Source: Escherichia phage HP3. From it: a stretch of 64,000 nt of DNA. Shown here in pieces: positions 391 to 51,092 of this stretch. The stretch lies in the sequence record NC_041919.1; one strand, 5' to 3'. The position numbers and the translations under genes are program-made. The notes beneath the pieces are model-generated. The model did no database searches, had not been told where the DNA came from, and worked only from the letters and a program-made list of their open reading frames with translations. Position 1 is the first letter of the stretch. The number at the start of each line of letters is the position of its first letter.

Positions 391-753
391 ATGAAAGCAT
401 ATCAAATTCTTGAAGGCACGCATAAAGGTACTATTTATTTTGAAGATGGTATTCAAGCACGAATTATTGTTTCTAAAACCTTTAAAGAGGACTCTTTTGT
501 AGACCCAGAAATTTTCTACGGTTTGCATGCCCGTGAAATTGAAATTGAGCCACAGCCTACAGTTAAAATTGAAGGTGGTCAACACCTGAACGTTAACGTT
601 CTGCGTCGTGAAACTCTGGAAGATGCAGTTAAGCATCCGGAAAAATATCCGCAGCTGACCATCCGTGTATCCGGTTATGCAGTTCGCTTTAACTCTCTGA
701 CTCCGGAACAGCAGCGCGACGTTATCGCTCGTACCTTTACTGAGAGCTTGTAA
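391..753 (+). CDS. grcA: GrcA/YfiD-like autonomous glycyl-radical cofactor (120 aa)
   Basis: C-terminal half [59 protein letters not shown] matches the glycyl-radical domain of E. coli GrcA/PflB as I recall it; T4 is known to carry such a homolog. Confidence 0.85.
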
Positions 754-1233: not shown

Positions 1234-1511
1234 TGGCTCAATTAAGCGCAGGGTTTGGTTATGAGTATTATACTGCCCCTCGTCGTGTGTCTGCTGCTCC
1301 TAAGAAAATTCAAAGTCTTGATGACTTCCAGGAAGTAGTCCGTAACGCTTTCCAGGACTATGCACGGTATCTTAAAGAAGATTCACAGGACTGTCTCGAA
1401 GAAGATGAAATTGCTTACTATACGCAGCGTCTTGAACAGCTCAAAAATCTACATGAGGTTCGTGCCGAAGTTTCAAAGTCTATGAATAAATTGATTAGAT
1501 TTAAAGAATAA
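1233..1511 (+). CDS. hypothetical protein (92 aa)
   Basis: ATG at 1233 preceded by GAGGAAAAA SD; track ORF 1191-1511 trimmed. Confidence 0.5.
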
Positions 1512-1513
1512 CT

Positions 1514-1543
1514 GTTTACTTTTCCTCTTGACTGTGGTATAAT
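1514..1543 (+). promoter_or_regulatory. T4-type early promoter (GTTTAC -35, 18 nt spacer, TATAAT -10)
   Basis: GTTTAC 1514-1519, TATAAT 1538-1543, followed by AAGAGGAG SD and ATG 1571. Confidence 0.6.
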
Positions 1544-1570
1544 TTTTCTATCAGTTAAGAGGAGAATAAC

Positions 1571-2032
1571 ATGACTATCAACACAGAAGTTTTTATCCGT
1601 CGAAATAAGCTTCGTCGTCACTTTGAGTCGGAGTTTCGTCAAATTAACAATGAGATTCGTGAGGCATCAAAAGCAGCAGGGGTCTCATCGTTTCATCTAA
1701 AATATTCTCAGCATCTTCTTGATCGTGCAATTCAACGGGAGATTGATGAGACATATGTTTTTGAATTATTCCACAAAATAAAAGACCATGTTTTAGAAGT
1801 TAATGAATTCCTGAGTATGCCTCCGCGTCCTGACATTGATGAGGATTTTATTGATGGGGTTGAATACCGTCCTGGACGTTTAGAAATCACAGATGGAAAT
1901 CTTTGGCTTGGATTTACAGTTTGTAAACCTAATGCGAAGTTCAAAGACCCGTCGCTTCAATGCAGGATGGCAATTATCAATAGTCGTCGTTTACCAGGAA
2001 AGGCTTCTAAAGCAGTAATTAAAACTCAATGA
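1571..2032 (+). CDS. regB: RegB-like endoribonuclease (153 aa)
   Basis: 153 aa, same size as T4 RegB; strong SD; sits upstream of vs/tk block as in T4. Confidence 0.7.
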   Translation: MTINTEVFIRRNKLRRHFESEFRQINNEIREASKAAGVSSFHLKYSQHLLDRAIQREIDETYVFELFHKIKDHVLEVNEFLSMPPRPDIDEDFIDGVEYRPGRLEITDGNLWLGFTVCKPNAKFKDPSLQCRMAIINSRRLPGKASKAVIKTQ

Positions 2033-2039
2033 GGTAAGC

Positions 2040-2585
2040 ATGAGAAAAGCACTACTCGCTGGTCTATTGGCCATTTCAATGATGGCACATAGCTCCGAGC
2101 ATACTTTCAGTAATGTCCAACTCGATAACATGCGTTACGCGTATCAATTCGGGGAACAATTTTCTAAGGATGGAAAATATAAAACACACAAAAATATCCA
2201 CAAGAGCGGATTAGGTCATATAATGGCTGCTATTTTATGGCAAGAAAGCTCTGGCGGAGTTAATTTAAAATCTAAACCAAAGCATCATGCCTATGGAATG
2301 TTCCAAAATTATTTGCCTACTATGCGAGCGAGAGTCAAGGAACTTGGTTATAATATGACCGATGCTGAAATAAAAAGAATGTTGAATAAACGGTCCAATT
2401 CAGCTTCCTGGGCGTACATTGAACTTTCTTATTGGTTAAATATACATAAGGGCGATATAAGAAAAGCAATATCCTCTTATAATTCGGGATGGAATGTTAA
2501 AGCTGGTTCTAAATATGCTTCTGAAGTCCTAGAAAAGGCTAATTACCTTAAAAATAATAAACTTTTGGAAATAGTAAATGACTAA
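2040..2585 (+). CDS. exported protein (181 aa), vs.1 position
   Basis: N-terminal signal-peptide-like segment MRKALLAGLLAISMMAHS; synteny with T4 vs.1. Confidence 0.55.
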   Translation: MRKALLAGLLAISMMAHSSEHTFSNVQLDNMRYAYQFGEQFSKDGKYKTHKNIHKSGLGHIMAAILWQESSGGVNLKSKPKHHAYGMFQNYLPTMRARVKELGYNMTDAEIKRMLNKRSNSASWAYIELSYWLNIHKGDIRKAISSYNSGWNVKAGSKYASEVLEKANYLKNNKLLEIVND

Positions 2586-2919
2586 AATTTTGGTTTTATG
2601 TATAGGATTAATTTCATTTTCTGCGTTAGCAGATACATCATATACTGAAATTAGAGAGTATGTAAACCGTACTGCCGCGGATTATTGTGGGAAAAATAAA
2701 GCATGCCAAGCTGAATTTGCGCAGAAATTAATATATGCATATAAAGACGGAGAAAGAGATAAATCAAGCAGATACAAAAACGATACATTATTAAAACGAT
2801 ATGCTAAAAAGTGGAATACCTTAGAATGTTCAGTTGCGGAGGAGAAAGATAAAGCCGCTTGTCATTCAATGGTTGACCGTTTGGTAGATTCTTATAATCG
2901 AGGATTGAGTACTAGATGA
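2578..2919 (+). CDS. exported protein (113 aa), possibly Vs-like
   Basis: Signal-peptide-like N-terminus MTKILVLCIGLISFSALA; position between vs.1-like and tk block. Confidence 0.45.
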   Translation: MTKILVLCIGLISFSALADTSYTEIREYVNRTAADYCGKNKACQAEFAQKLIYAYKDGERDKSSRYKNDTLLKRYAKKWNTLECSVAEEKDKAACHSMVDRLVDSYNRGLSTR

Positions 2920-3383
2920 TTGTAAAATATATCAAGGGCGATATTGTCGCCCTTTTCGCTGAAGGTAAAAATATTGCGCATGGATGCAATTGTTTTCATA
3001 CTATGGGTTCAGGCGTAGCGGGTCAATTAACCAAAGCTTTCCCTAAAATTTTGGAAGCTGATAAATTACAGACTGAATGGGGTGATGTAACTAAACTCGG
3101 TTCTTACTCAGTCTATGAAAAATACTTTAGGACTCATAAAGCGTATTGCTTCAACCTTTATACTCAATTTCAACCAGGGCCAAATTTTGAGTATTCCGCT
3201 TTAATGAATTGTATGTTAGAATTAAATGAGTTTGGTGAAAATAAACTGATTAAACCTACAATCTATATGCCTAGGATTGGTGCAGGCATAGGTAAAGGGA
3301 ACTGGGATATTATTGAGGGGATTTTAGATACATATTCCTCTAAATTAGAAATTGTGATTGTTGATTGGGAACCGTTATTATGA
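2916..3383 (+). CDS. macro-domain-like protein (155 aa)
   Basis: KGDIV..NIAHGCNCFHTMGSGVAGQL and later PRIGAGIGKG resemble the macro-domain ADP-ribose-binding motifs (GDIT..NAAN..GGGV..G and P.IGTG.YG). Confidence 0.55.
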   Translation: MIVKYIKGDIVALFAEGKNIAHGCNCFHTMGSGVAGQLTKAFPKILEADKLQTEWGDVTKLGSYSVYEKYFRTHKAYCFNLYTQFQPGPNFEYSALMNCMLELNEFGENKLIKPTIYMPRIGAGIGKGNWDIIEGILDTYSSKLEIVIVDWEPLL

Positions 3384-3592
3384 ATATACATTATCCACAT
3401 CCATATGACCCAAAGAATAAGGCAGTAATTATTCGTCAATGGGAACGCATTTGCCGTACTAAATGTCCAATTAATAGTCCGCATGATGTAGATAAAGACT
3501 ACATTGGAACATTCGTTGAATATACCTTTATTGATAAGAAAGGTCGTAAACAGCATGTAGAAGAATACTGCTTAAAGGTTACATGGTTATGA
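3365..3592 (+). CDS. hypothetical protein (75 aa)
   Basis: Track ORF overlapping neighbours by a few codons. Confidence 0.45.
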   Translation: MGTVIMNIHYPHPYDPKNKAVIIRQWERICRTKCPINSPHDVDKDYIGTFVEYTFIDKKGRKQHVEEYCLKVTWL

Positions 3593-3795
3593 GCCAAACT
3601 AGTATTCTTAAAAATGCCCATTGTGAAAAGTGTAAATGGCCAGTTGTTTTTGCTTTATGCAACGATGAAATGGCTTGTGATTTCGATTATTGGTGCTATT
3701 GTTCTAATAAAGGATGCATCAATCATAAAGGTGAAGGATTTTATTCGGGATTTTATCCTTATCCAGATTTCGTTAAAGAAGGTAAACCGAAATGA
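3583..3795 (+). CDS. Cys-rich small protein (70 aa)
   Basis: Nine Cys incl. CEKCKW..CNDEMACDFDYWCYCSNKGC; possible metal-binding. Confidence 0.45.
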   Translation: MVMSQTSILKNAHCEKCKWPVVFALCNDEMACDFDYWCYCSNKGCINHKGEGFYSGFYPYPDFVKEGKPK

Positions 3796-3965
3796 ATAGT
3801 TTTGAGTTACAGTATGAAGTGTTACGTGAGCTTGATAATTTAATTGAACTCGCTGTCAATAAAGGTTTTGCCATTGGAATCGGTCAAAAAGATACTGGTC
3901 ATTTAACTATGGAAATATTTAAGCAAAAGCGAATTATTTTAAAACTCCTGGAAATTAATATATGA
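3792..3965 (+). CDS. hypothetical small protein (57 aa)
   Basis: ATG 3792 to TGA 3963-3965 read from sequence; below track size cut-off; fills gap and overlaps neighbours. Confidence 0.35.
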   Translation: MNSFELQYEVLRELDNLIELAVNKGFAIGIGQKDTGHLTMEIFKQKRIILKLLEINI

Positions 3966-4147
3966 GTCTGAGTAAAGAACAAAAAGATAAATTGTTTGAG
4001 CTTATCCATGAACTTCTAGATGAGCATACAGAAGCAAACACCTTTTATGATGAATACGGCCCGCTATCTCCCGAACAGCAAGAAGAATTTGCTGATCGGT
4101 TTGATAAGAAAGAAAACGAATTAATAGCTTATGTGAATATGCTTTAA
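3962..4147 (+). CDS. hypothetical protein (61 aa)
   Basis: Track ORF; acidic. Confidence 0.5.
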   Translation: MSLSKEQKDKLFELIHELLDEHTEANTFYDEYGPLSPEQQEEFADRFDKKENELIAYVNML

Positions 4148-4156
4148 GAAGGTGAT

Positions 4157-4738
4157 ATGGCGAGTTTAATTTTTACTTACGCAGCAATGAATGCTGGAAA
4201 ATCTGCTTCTCTTTTGACTGCTGCACATAATTATAAAGAACGCGGAATGGGTGTATTAGTTCTTAAGCCTGCTATTGATACTCGCGATTCTGTCTGTGAA
4301 GTCGTTTCTCGCATTGGAATTAAGCAGGAAGCGAATATTATTACGGATGATATGGATATTTTTGAGTTCTATAAATGGGCTGAAGCACAAAAAGATATTC
4401 ATTGTGTATTTGTAGATGAAGCTCAGTTTTTAAAAACTGAACAGGTGCATCAATTAAGTCGAATTGTTGATACATATAATGTTCCTGTTATGGCTTATGG
4501 GCTAAGGACTGATTTCGCTGGAAAATTATTTGAAGGTTCTAAAGAACTTTTGGCGATTGCAGATAAACTTATTGAACTAAAGGCAGTTTGTCATTGTGGT
4601 AAAAAAGCTATTATGACAGCTCGATTAATGGAAGATGGAACACCAGTTAAAGAAGGTAATCAAATCTGTATTGGTGATGAAATTTATGTTTCTTTGTGTA
4701 GAAAACATTGGAATGAATTAACTAAAAAGCTCGGTTAG
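4157..4738 (+). CDS. tk: thymidine kinase (193 aa)
   Basis: P-loop AAMNAGKS, 193 aa as T4 Tk, Cys cluster CHCGKKA near C-terminus. Confidence 0.93.
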   Translation: MASLIFTYAAMNAGKSASLLTAAHNYKERGMGVLVLKPAIDTRDSVCEVVSRIGIKQEANIITDDMDIFEFYKWAEAQKDIHCVFVDEAQFLKTEQVHQLSRIVDTYNVPVMAYGLRTDFAGKLFEGSKELLAIADKLIELKAVCHCGKKAIMTARLMEDGTPVKEGNQICIGDEIYVSLCRKHWNELTKKLG

Positions 4739-4747
4739 TGCAAAAGT

Positions 4748-4755
4748 TATAAATA
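4748..4755 (+). promoter_or_regulatory. T4 late-promoter consensus TATAAATA
   Basis: Exact TATAAATA 25 nt upstream of ATG 4781. Confidence 0.45.
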
Positions 4756-4780
4756 GGTTTATCTAACTAAAGGGGTATAT

Positions 4781-4993
4781 ATGCTACAATTAACTGAAAA
4801 GCAACTTCGCAATCTTACTGTTCTTCAATTAGATGAAATTCGTAGGGAAGTTGGAAATATCATTTCAGCTTTGCGTCGAGAAGTATCACTCAACCAATCT
4901 CCGGCAGACTATACTAGATTGCGAAATTTTGAAAAATACCTTGATAAAGTTAAGGCCGTGCATCGGCATAAAGTAAATACAGGACAAAAATGA
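4781..4993 (+). CDS. hypothetical protein (70 aa), rI-adjacent
   Basis: Track ORF with GGGG SD. Confidence 0.55.
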
Positions 4994-5005
4994 TAGGAGG
5001 CCTTT

Positions 5006-42154: not shown

Positions 42155-42337
42155 ATGGAATTGGTAAAGGTAGTTTTTATGGGGTGGTTTAAGAATGAAA
42201 GCATGTTTACTAAAGAGATCACAATGATGAAAGATGACGTTCAATGGGCTACTACTCAATATGCTGAAGTTAATAAAGCACTAGTTAAAGCTTTCATTGA
42301 TGACAAGAAGGTATGTGAAGTGGATTGCCGAGGATAA
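42155..42337 (+). CDS. dmd: Dmd antitoxin-like protein (60 aa)
   Basis: 60 aa directly downstream of gene 41 as T4 dmd. Confidence 0.75.
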   Translation: MELVKVVFMGWFKNESMFTKEITMMKDDVQWATTQYAEVNKALVKAFIDDKKVCEVDCRG

Positions 42338-42656: not shown

Positions 42657-42950
42657 ATGAAAAAATTTATCTTTGCTGCAATTTTTGCTTTATCTTCTTG
42701 CGCTGCTCAGCCTGCTATGGCGGGTTATGACAAAGATTTGTGCGAATGGTCTATGACTGCGGATCAGACTGAAGTTGAAACTCAAATTGAAGCAGATATT
42801 ATGAATATCGTTGAACGTGATCGTCCTGAAATGAAAGCTGAAGTGCAAAAACAGCTTAAGTCTGGTGGTGTAATGCAGTATAATTATGTTCTGTATTGCG
42901 ATAAAAACTTTAATAATAAAAATATCATCGCTGAAGTGGTAGGTGAATAA
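42657..42950 (+). CDS. sp: periplasmic spackle protein Sp (97 aa)
   Basis: 97 aa with signal peptide MKKFIFAAIFALSSCAAQPAMA. Confidence 0.8.
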   Translation: MKKFIFAAIFALSSCAAQPAMAGYDKDLCEWSMTADQTEVETQIEADIMNIVERDRPEMKAEVQKQLKSGGVMQYNYVLYCDKNFNNKNIIAEVVGE

Positions 42951-43576
42951 TGCTTTATCAAATGCACAAGTGTAAAGACACGTACAAATATAAAGGTGCC
43001 CAGTGTTATATCATTAATCGTGAAAACGCAGGTCCAGGCCATTCGCATCAATCACGGTTTGTATTCGTTAAAAATAATGAAATTATAGCAGTTGCTAATT
43101 ATATGCTTGTGACCAATGATGTTAATCCGGTGCCTTTCACATATGACAATCTAATGGACTTGGCATATGATTATAATTGGTTTAATCATGACAATTTAGT
43201 TCATATTGAAGGCGTAGGATTTGACATCTCTTATTCTAGTTATTCGTTGTGCCCTATGAGCCGAGCTCATAAAGAGCCTGAATATTTTTCATTTCGTCGG
43301 CGTGTAGACTTTAAACGCAGTACAGAGTATGTCGGTGGAATCTTTGTTAAAGATAATCGAATTACTCGCATTATTTATCCTTTGGGCTTTGGTCAAAAAG
43401 ATATTGATGTTGATTTAGACTTTACTGAAAGCAGCATTAATCATATTGCTTCTGTGTATTTTGATATTGATCACAAAATTGTAATATGTGGATATGAATT
43501 ACCATCCGAAAAACAGTCTAAAGTAAATGTTTCTATTGATGACCAAATTTTTAATGCTTTTATGAATAGAGGTTAA
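42950..43576 (+). CDS. hypothetical protein (208 aa), 61.2 position
   Basis: Track ORF; synteny with T4 61.2. Confidence 0.6.
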   Translation: MLYQMHKCKDTYKYKGAQCYIINRENAGPGHSHQSRFVFVKNNEIIAVANYMLVTNDVNPVPFTYDNLMDLAYDYNWFNHDNLVHIEGVGFDISYSSYSLCPMSRAHKEPEYFSFRRRVDFKRSTEYVGGIFVKDNRITRIIYPLGFGQKDIDVDLDFTESSINHIASVYFDIDHKIVICGYELPSEKQSKVNVSIDDQIFNAFMNRG

Positions 43577-49869: not shown

Positions 49870-50493
49870 ATGATTATTAATCTCGCAGATGTTGAACAGT
49901 TATCTATAAAAGCTGAAAGCGTTGATTTTCAATATGATATGTATAAAAAGGTCTGTGAAAAATTTACTGACTTTGAACAGTCAATTCTTTGGCAATGTAT
50001 GGAAGCCAAAAAGAATGAAGCTCTTCATAGGCAGTTGAATAAAATCGTTAAAAAGCATTTAACTAAATCGCCTTATCAGCTATATCGTGGTATATCAAAA
50101 TCGACAAAAGAACTCATTAAAGATTTACAAGTCGGAGAAGTGTTTTCAACGAACAGAGTAGATTCATTTACTACTAGTTTGCACACAGCATGTGGTTTTT
50201 CTTATGTTGAGTATTTCACTGAAATAATATTTCGCTTAAAAACTGATAAAGCTTTTAATTATTCTGACCATATCAGCGATATTATACTTTCTTCTCCTAA
50301 TACTGAATTTAAGTATACATATGAAGATACTGATGGATTAGATTCAGAGCGTACTGATAACTTAATGATGATTGTGCGTGAACAAGAATGGATGATTCCA
50401 ATTGGAAAGTATAGAATAACTTCTATTTCAAAAGAAAAATTACACGATTCATTTGGAACATTTAAAGTTTATGATATTGAGGTAGTTGAATGA
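49870..50493 (+). CDS. modB: ADP-ribosyltransferase, ModB-like (207 aa)
   Basis: R-S-EXE signature: YRG, TTS, EQEW; 207 aa. Confidence 0.65.
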   Translation: MIINLADVEQLSIKAESVDFQYDMYKKVCEKFTDFEQSILWQCMEAKKNEALHRQLNKIVKKHLTKSPYQLYRGISKSTKELIKDLQVGEVFSTNRVDSFTTSLHTACGFSYVEYFTEIIFRLKTDKAFNYSDHISDIILSSPNTEFKYTYEDTDGLDSERTDNLMMIVREQEWMIPIGKYRITSISKEKLHDSFGTFKVYDIEVVE

Positions 50494-51092
50494 AATATTC
50501 AGCAATGCAATTAAAAGATTTTAAAATCAAATCAATGGATGCATCTGTGCGTGCTTCTATTCGTGAAGAATTACTTTCTGAAGGATTTAATTTATCTGAA
50601 ATTGAACTTTTAATTCATTGTATTACTAATAAACCAGACGATCATTCTTGGTTAAATGAAATAGTCAAATCTCGTTTGGAACCAAACGATAAACCTCTTT
50701 GGAGAGGTGTTCCAGCTGAGACTAAGCAGGTGTTAAATCAAGGAATTGATATTATTACATTTGATAAAGTCGTATCAGCTTCATATGATAAAAATATAGC
50801 TCTACATTTTGCTTCTGGATTAGAATACAACACACAAGTTATTTTTGAATTCAAAGCTCCTATGGTGTTTAATTTCCAGGAGTATGCTATAAAAGCTTTA
50901 CGTTGTAAAGAATATAGTCCGAGTTTTAAGTTTCCGGATAGCCATCGCTATCGTAATATGGAATTAGTTTCAGATGAACAAGAAGTAATGATACCAGCTG
51001 GAAGTGTATTTAGAATTGCGGATAGATACGAGTATAAAAAGTATTCAACATACACTATCTATACTCTTGATTTTGAAGGATTTAATCTATAA
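50490..51092 (+). CDS. modA: ADP-ribosyltransferase, ModA-like (200 aa)
   Basis: R-S-EXE signature: WRG, SAS, EQEV; 200 aa; tandem with previous. Confidence 0.65.
   Translation: MKYSAMQLKDFKIKSMDASVRASIREELLSEGFNLSEIELLIHCITNKPDDHSWLNEIVKSRLEPNDKPLWRGVPAETKQVLNQGIDIITFDKVVSASYDKNIALHFASGLEYNTQVIFEFKAPMVFNFQEYAIKALRCKEYSPSFKFPDSHRYRNMELVSDEQEVMIPAGSVFRIADRYEYKKYSTYTIYTLDFEGFNL

Follow-up and report, generated by a model that had tools for sequence, protein, structure and literature searches.

The DNA analysed here, a 64,000-nucleotide stretch of Escherichia phage HP3 (NC_041919.1; hereafter the window), encodes at positions 2916–3383 of the plus strand a stand-alone macrodomain of 155 amino acids, Tk.4, which probably acts as an ADP-ribosyl glycohydrolase: it would clear the ADP-ribose that the host toxin DarT2 puts on phage DNA, and would thereby confer resistance to DarTG2. 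Judged from its sequence, the window belongs to a T4-like Tequatrovirus, and the open reading frame (ORF), which runs from ATG to a TGA stop included in the coordinates, is the T4 gene tk.4, lately renamed adfM (anti-DarT factor Macrodomain). Its protein is identical to T4 Tk.4 in 155 of 155 residues and is encoded at the same position, between vs and tk.3, in a phage of the same genus that differs from T4 elsewhere, its ModB being only 95% identical to T4 ModB. The anti-DarTG2 role of tk.4 has already been published for the identical T4 protein, and the present finding is a rediscovery.

T4 lacking both adfA and adfN stays DarTG2-resistant, so that some other anti-DarTG2 factor must be present (PMC11825919). 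HIDEN-SEQ, a transposon mapping of phage gene essentiality presented as a bioRxiv preprint in November 2025, singled out tk.4 as the only T4 gene with a significant requirement on a DarTG2-expressing host; a clean knockout rendered T4 DarTG2-sensitive, the gene was named adfM, and the authors note a structural likeness of AdfM to M. tuberculosis DarG (10.1101/2025.11.20.689424). Among several roles for this ORF, an earlier reading of the window made by a model from the letters and their translations (the sequence-only reading) had proposed the countering of DarT-type DNA ADP-ribosylation, which agrees with the genetics that the preprint reports for the T4 protein. Our interpretation would join these T4 genetics, shown by others, to the fold and residues described below and to a chemistry taken by analogy from a related enzyme.

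Fold and active site of Tk.4

Tk.4 matched the Pfam Macro family (PF01661) over profile positions 2–113 of 118 with 27.7 bits (E = 2.9e-6), above the gathering threshold of 22 bits. A single-sequence search returned the solved macrodomains BT1257 (E = 1.3e-9), Poa1p, TARG1 and DarG, and a profile built from 49 homologues returned BT1257 (1.6e-17), human TARG1/OARD1 (8.6e-14), Poa1p (1.1e-13), SCO6735 (1.4e-13) and M. tuberculosis DarG (2.1e-13). The AlphaFold2 model computed with the 49-homologue alignment has a mean predicted local distance difference test (pLDDT) score of 95.9 and a predicted template modelling (pTM) score of 0.91, and displays the three-layer α/β/α macro fold. When this model was searched against the PDB with Foldseek, the top group consisted of macrodomains throughout (E-values from 9e-10 to 3e-7, template modelling (TM) scores of 0.7–0.8): TARG1 (PDB codes 4J5R and 4J5S) ranked first (8.7e-10, TM 0.71–0.78), accompanied by Poa1p, BT1257 and three DarG entries. 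Poa1p resembles Tk.4 in fold as well as in sequence. As the nearest structural and sequence neighbours are all of the ALC1-like/TARG1-like class (TARG1, DarG, Poa1p, SCO6735, BT1257), Tk.4 is placed in that class. As early as 2006, tk.4 orthologues were noted to contain an A1pp/macro domain (PMC1524935), and several database records label the ORF ‘macro domain protein’. In T4, tk.4 is annotated ‘phosphatase; contains A1pp phosphatase motif’, and GenBank and PHROGs also carry the ‘phosphatase’ label, which is a transfer of the domain name.

Active-site residues were assigned from sequence and profile alignments (HMMER, MAFFT) to solved structures, and their conservation was counted across 119 Tk.4 homologues. 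The segment H22-G23-C24-N25-C26 (2979–2993, plus strand) aligns N25 with the active-site Asn of DarG (N22) and SCO6735 (N27), and H22 with H24 of SCO6735; N25 is present in 118 of the homologues and H22 in 114. An active-site role of the matching Asn has been described for SCO6735, DarG and the PhiKZ protein AdfM (PMC9411070, PMC13309987). The first ADP-ribose-binding loop, MGSGVAG (residues 30–36; 3003–3023, plus strand), corresponds in the alignments to MGAGIA in TARG1 and MGKGVA in DarG, and its residues G33 and A35 are invariant (119/119). The second Gly-rich loop, which is the diphosphate-binding one, has the sequence PRIGAGIGKGNW (residues 119–130; 3270–3305, plus strand) and includes PRIGAGIGKG (119–128); P119, I121, G122 and G124 are again invariant, and position 126, which lies at the catalytic Asp125 of TARG1, is occupied by Ala or Gly only. 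The macrodomain call of the sequence-only reading, which had named fold prediction and an intact Gly-rich loop as its checks, is borne out on both, and ADP-ribose binding by the Gly-rich cleft is most likely, as predicted from these residues.

In the segment N80-L-Y-T-Q84 (3153–3167, plus strand), Q84 stands where TARG1 and DarG have their catalytic Lys (K84 and K80, respectively) and SCO6735 its essential Gln85. The residue is Gln in every one of the 119 homologues and never Lys. SCO6735 of S. coelicolor (PDB code 5E3B) and BT1257 of Bacteroides (PDB codes 2FG1 and 2AFC) are ALC1-like macrodomains of the Gln type, and their pattern H-x-C-N ... N-x-x-x-Q is found in Tk.4 (H22-G-C-N25 and N80-L-Y-T-Q84, compared with H24-V-C-N27 and N81-M-I-G-Q85 in SCO6735). 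Mapped as motifs, Tk.4 reads AHGCN25/NLYTQ84/PRIGAGIG126 and SCO6735 reads AHVCN27/NMIGQ85/PRIGCGLAGG. Overall identity of Tk.4 to the two proteins is 21–29%; BT1257 is the best PDB match, and SCO6735 has a profile score close to those of TARG1, Poa1p and DarG. The likeness has its limits, in that Tk.4 has YTQ instead of IGQHG after the strand, and lacks the longer mobile loop that follows the Gln in SCO6735 and BT1257. SCO6735 is, moreover, a cellular DNA-damage-inducible protein (PMC12879935) and not a phage counter-defence protein like Tk.4. The Gln-for-Lys active site of Tk.4 seems to have been under-appreciated.

SCO6735 cleaves thymidine-linked ADP-ribose from DarT-modified single-stranded DNA; its Q85A and Q85E mutants are inactive and N27S nearly so, and in the mechanism proposed for it, water initiates the reaction and the Gln positions the distal ribose (PMC9411070). 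All tested enzymes of the class, DarG, TARG1 and SCO6735, strip single-stranded DNA of thymidine-linked ADP-ribose (PMC12879935, PMC9411070), and all three also remove uracil-linked ADP-ribose from RNA (PMC12879935, PMC13036486). From the invariant Gln84 at the Lys position of DarG and TARG1, together with Asn25 and His22, we infer a mechanism of the SCO6735 type for Tk.4. The host DarT2 uses NAD+ to put ADP-ribose on N3 of thymidine in TNTC motifs of single-stranded DNA, a modification that blocks phage DNA replication. In the sequence of events that we propose, tk.4 would be expressed within the regB–vs–tk gene string. The Gly-rich cleft of Tk.4 would bind the ADP-ribose moiety, Gln84 would position the distal ribose, and a water molecule would start the reaction, which would not depend on a Lys. 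Hydrolysis of the ribose–thymine bond would then regain unmodified DNA and leave the phage DarTG2-resistant.

Relation to DarG and to PhiKZ AdfM

DarG models are the sole PADLOC and NCBIfam families that match Tk.4, and they match in the macrodomain part only. The NCBIfam DarG equivalog (NF048014) scored 30.3 bits, below its cut-off of 250, and the PADLOC model 36 bits; the matches cover positions 2–146 of 338 and 2–145 of 329 of the DarG models, and the C-terminal DarT-binding domain is absent from Tk.4. DarG (PDB codes 5M31 and 5M3E from T. aquaticus, 5M3I from M. tuberculosis) has Lys80 where Tk.4 has Gln84, and it possesses both the C-terminal DarT-binding domain and an adjoining darT, whereas Tk.4 has neither. 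No darT is found beside tk.4, the neighbours being regB, vs.1, vs, tk.3–tk.1 and tk, and the divergent tk.4 orthologues that were examined stand among T4-like phage genes with none annotated as darT alongside. Its score, its domain architecture, its gene context and the missing catalytic Lys led us to reject Tk.4 as an orthologue of DarG. TARG1, the top structural match, employs a Lys84/Asp125 catalytic dyad where Tk.4 has Gln84/Gly126; this Asp, absent from Tk.4, is likewise missing from DarG (PMC9411070).

The name AdfM has also been given, in a 2026 Cell Reports paper, to gp104 of PhiKZ, a chimallivirus DarG2-like antitoxin (PMC13309987), which shares with Tk.4 the name, the proposed job of clearing phage DNA of the ADP-ribose that DarT2 attaches, and the character of a stand-alone phage macrodomain. 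PhiKZ AdfM, however, is of the Lys type (N23/K78), is imported into the phage nucleus and has been shown to remove thymidine-linked ADP-ribose in vitro (PMC13309987), whereas Tk.4 is of the Gln type. A BLAST comparison of the two returned a local match of only 23 residues (E = 0.005), and the PADLOC DarG model gives PhiKZ AdfM 133 bits against the 36 of Tk.4. With the Gln in place of Lys, these values led us to reject a grouping of T4 Tk.4 with the PhiKZ protein. One name is borne by two phage macrodomain lineages that are, by these comparisons, unrelated. A shared name over so short a match is therefore a nomenclature trap for annotation transfer, and the two ‘AdfM’ proteins should not be treated as one family.

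A broader proposal, offered tentatively as a real possibility that falls somewhat short of probable, is that Tk.4 represents a separate, phage-wide Gln-type lineage rather than a captured DarG, and that it would use a lysine-independent, water-initiated mechanism like that of SCO6735. Such a protein might, as SCO6735 does, also act on uracil-linked ADP-ribose in RNA, or might block DarT2 by binding to it.

Glycohydrolysis weighed against other roles

Several points weigh against glycohydrolysis by Tk.4. The canonical Lys of TARG1 (K84) and DarG (K80) is missing from Tk.4, the alignments placing Gln84 there instead, so that the case for its activity is an analogy with a single characterised enzyme of the Gln type. 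Its isoelectric point of 5.9, acidic to neutral overall, is not what would be expected of an obvious DNA binder. We found no enzymology of T4 Tk.4/AdfM in the published literature, and the preprint, as far as its accessible text goes, calls ADP-ribose removal from DNA by AdfM something that ‘seems likely’, without an enzymatic assay; the phenotype was obtained with T4 and not an HP3-type phage, with one DarTG2 system, at 30 °C and in minimal medium (10.1101/2025.11.20.689424). Finally, catalytically dead SCO6735 (Q85A), DarG (K80A) and TARG1 (K84A) inhibit DarT in vitro, SCO6735 most strongly; SCO6735 protects from DarT toxicity, and in its dead form it still inhibits DarT by interacting with it (PMC9411070).

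The last of these observations bears directly on the alternative that survives best, namely that Tk.4 mainly binds and inhibits DarT2 by antitoxin-like occlusion or product mimicry, hydrolysis being minor or absent. The missing catalytic Lys would suit such a role, and AdfA, an anti-DarT factor of the T-even phages, does work by binding DarT1 (PMC11825919). We nevertheless consider it unlikely: Tk.4 lacks any counterpart of DarG’s C-terminal DarT-binding domain, and the residues that are invariant across the 119 homologues are those of the ADP-ribose cleft (N25, Q84 and both Gly loops), a pattern that fits an enzyme and not a toxin-specific binder.

Considerably less probable is a role in erasing the marks of the phage’s own enzymes Alt, ModA and ModB (ADP-ribose or RNA-linked ADP-ribose on host proteins), or in shielding phage proteins from modification off target. 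The sequence-only reading had drawn such a link to ModA/ModB-like enzymes at 49870–51092, and these are real, in the order modB (an ADP-ribosyltransferase; 49870–50493, plus strand) and modA (the RNA polymerase alpha ADP-ribosyltransferase; 50490–51092, plus strand; 97% identical to T4 ModA). Both were recognised by PHROG 832, while Pfam-A gave no match to either at E ≤ 0.01, so that a Pfam-only screen would miss these ADP-ribosyltransferases. Besides the presence of both genes in the window, it speaks for the link that the macrodomain superfamily includes protein de-ADP-ribosylases, SCO6735 and TARG1 acting on PARP1-type protein substrates (PMC9411070). However, tk.4 lies 47 kb from modB and modA, in a separate transcription unit. 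Co-occurrence with Mod-type transferases was also rejected: Tk.4-like genes were found in 2749 of 50,697 phage records (tblastn), and ModB-like genes, the transferases counted here (Alt-like ones were not counted separately), in 1009, essentially enterobacterial T4-likes. Alt, ModA and ModB modify arginine, and no TARG1/DarG-class relative among the structures recovered is described as arginine-specific. In the accessible text of the preprint, a phenotype of tk.4 is given for the DarTG2 host only (10.1101/2025.11.20.689424). A functional link between tk.4 and ModA/ModB is not supported, and nothing was found in support of the further suggestion that the protein ‘reads’ ADP-ribosylation.

There is still less to recommend an ADP-ribose-1''-phosphate phosphatase (‘A1pp’) or an O-acetyl-ADP-ribose deacetylase of nucleotide or RNA-repair metabolism, names that come from domain transfer and would leave the DarTG2-specific phenotype, as the preprint presents it, unexplained. 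T4 RNA repair, by polynucleotide kinase (PNK) and Rnl1, makes ordinary 3'-5' junctions with no 2'-phosphate, and therefore neither the by-product Appr>p nor Appr-1''-p would be expected. We regard as most improbable that Tk.4 degrades or sequesters NAD-derived signals (the Thoeris signals gcADPR, glycocyclic ADP-ribose, and His-ADPR, histidine-linked ADP-ribose, or other ADP-ribose derivatives), another option of the sequence-only reading for which we found nothing in support, or that it reverses CmdTAC-type RNA ADP-ribosylation: wild-type T4, which carries tk.4, is still blocked by CmdTAC, an mRNA ADP-ribosylating defence (PMC11618068), so that in vivo Tk.4 does not act as an eraser of nucleic-acid ADP-ribosylation in general; no literature report tying tk.4 to Thoeris was found; DarTG2 is the only phenotype described in the accessible preprint text (10.1101/2025.11.20.689424); and the nearest structural class is that of nucleic-acid and protein glycohydrolases, not the signal-binding ThsA type. 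Of the earlier interpretation as a whole, the macrodomain call and the DarT option stand, while the ModA/ModB framing falls away.

Phage distribution and gene surroundings

Carriers of Tk.4-like genes include Pseudomonas, Vibrio, Acinetobacter, Aeromonas, Campylobacter, Felixounavirus-type and Bacillus phages. The best 120 database homologues of Tk.4 are 34–98% identical to it, and within this sample the close family is phage-only. An orphan-antitoxin origin, which would place a cellular homologue beside darT, gained no support from the two longest ‘bacterial’ contigs from metagenome-assembled genomes with a Tk.4 homologue, which were inspected and proved to be T4-like phage DNA, encoding Rnl1, PNKP, a Dda-like helicase, the T4 spanin and dCMP deaminase. 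DUF5856 and SLT also surround the Tk.4 homologue on JBOFGC010000414.1 (GCA_051648945.1, ‘Bacilli bacterium’) and JBOFQK010000158.1 (GCA_051660865.1, ‘Culicoidibacterales’), and on the former the macro gene stands between a Rnl1-containing block and the Dda-like helicase gene; both contigs appear to be Straboviridae-like phage DNA that was wrongly binned with bacteria.

In the window, tk.4 belongs to a co-oriented, tightly packed string of genes, regB–vs.1–vs–tk.4–tk.3–tk.2–tk.1–tk (1571–4738, plus strand), delimited from the ORFs and the annotation of OL631480 and T4, and arranged in the T4 order from regB to tk. Pfam matches within it are RegB, SLT (vs.1) and DUF7202 (tk.3). Upstream of regB, a promoter scan gave a consensus match of the sigma-70 type (TTTACT-17-TATAAT with a TG; 1515–1543, plus strand). 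A GAGGA that reads as a Shine-Dalgarno sequence (2900–2904, plus strand) lies 11 nucleotides before the tk.4 ATG. This ATG (2916–2918) overlaps the vs stop codon (2917–2919) as ATGA, the tk.4 stop and the tk.3 start overlap in the same manner, and the annotations of OL631480 and T4 show both overlaps too. A megablast search with window positions 1500–5000 matched 814 phage records, nearly all of Tequatrovirus and its relatives, the best being Escherichia phage HP3.2 with 100% identity over 3.5 kb. Further upstream, a 120-amino-acid ORF (391–753, plus strand) contains the glycyl-radical motif RVSGYAV, and the annotation of a relative calls it an autonomous glycyl radical cofactor (GrcA-like). 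Its T4 counterpart appears to be vs.6, for which PMC1524935 gives a Gly_radical Pfam match.

Codons 7–13 of tk.4 contain a GC-rich hairpin with a 9-base-pair stem and a 3-nucleotide loop, followed by a T-rich tail (2934–2954). Its RNA has a minimum free energy of -13.4 kcal/mol (z = -2.9); a terminator-like match falls on the minus strand, and the OL631480 annotation places a rho-independent terminator here. The stem DNA is unchanged, synonymous sites included, in Mosigvirus, Dhakavirus and a divergent Tequatrovirus orthologue (52–84% protein identity), variation being confined to the loop base and the base that follows the stem. No such hairpin occurs in the tk.4 orthologues of Moonvirus, Jiaodavirus and Serratia phage 4S, in which other codons or residues are used. 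The invariance gives a hint of a conserved element at the RNA or DNA level, perhaps an attenuator or terminator acting between vs and tk.4, or an element of mRNA stability or processing; recent recombination of a short segment is an alternative source of the stem identity.

Two further anti-DarT factors of T4, AdfN (gp30.3, NADAR) and AdfA, act against DarTG1 and have folds unrelated to that of Tk.4. AdfN is, like Tk.4, an ‘orphan antitoxin-like’ glycohydrolase, but its target is guanosine-linked ADP-ribose, and it gives no protection against DarTG2 (PMC11825919). Its gene (30.3) lies outside the window, while an orthologue of T4 gene 61.2 is present at 42950–43576 (plus strand), 98% identical over 208 amino acids. 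We take gene 61.2 to be adfA, the toxin-binding anti-DarT1 factor, an assignment that is said to come from LeRoux and colleagues in 2022; if this holds, AdfA and AdfM are both encoded in the window, which makes two anti-DarT factors. Close by, at 42155–42337 (plus strand), the orthologue of dmd (labelled ‘discriminator of mRNA degradation’ in T4) is 100% identical to T4 Dmd over 60 amino acids. Dmd is an antitoxin mimic directed against RnlA and LsoA.

The sequence-only reading thus picked out a true counter-defence gene. With the genetics already published, the value that remains is narrower and lies in what appears, from the alignments, to be a rare Gln-type active site like that of SCO6735, and not the Lys type of DarG and the PhiKZ protein. 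This site yields a prediction for mutagenesis, that Q84 and N25 would be essential in Tk.4, with Q84K as an informative substitution. If the proposal holds, phages would have recruited two mechanistically different macrodomains, the Gln-type Tk.4 and the Lys-type PhiKZ gp104, against one toxin, and a family found in some 2700 phage genomes from many genera would rank among the most widespread anti-defence enzymes.

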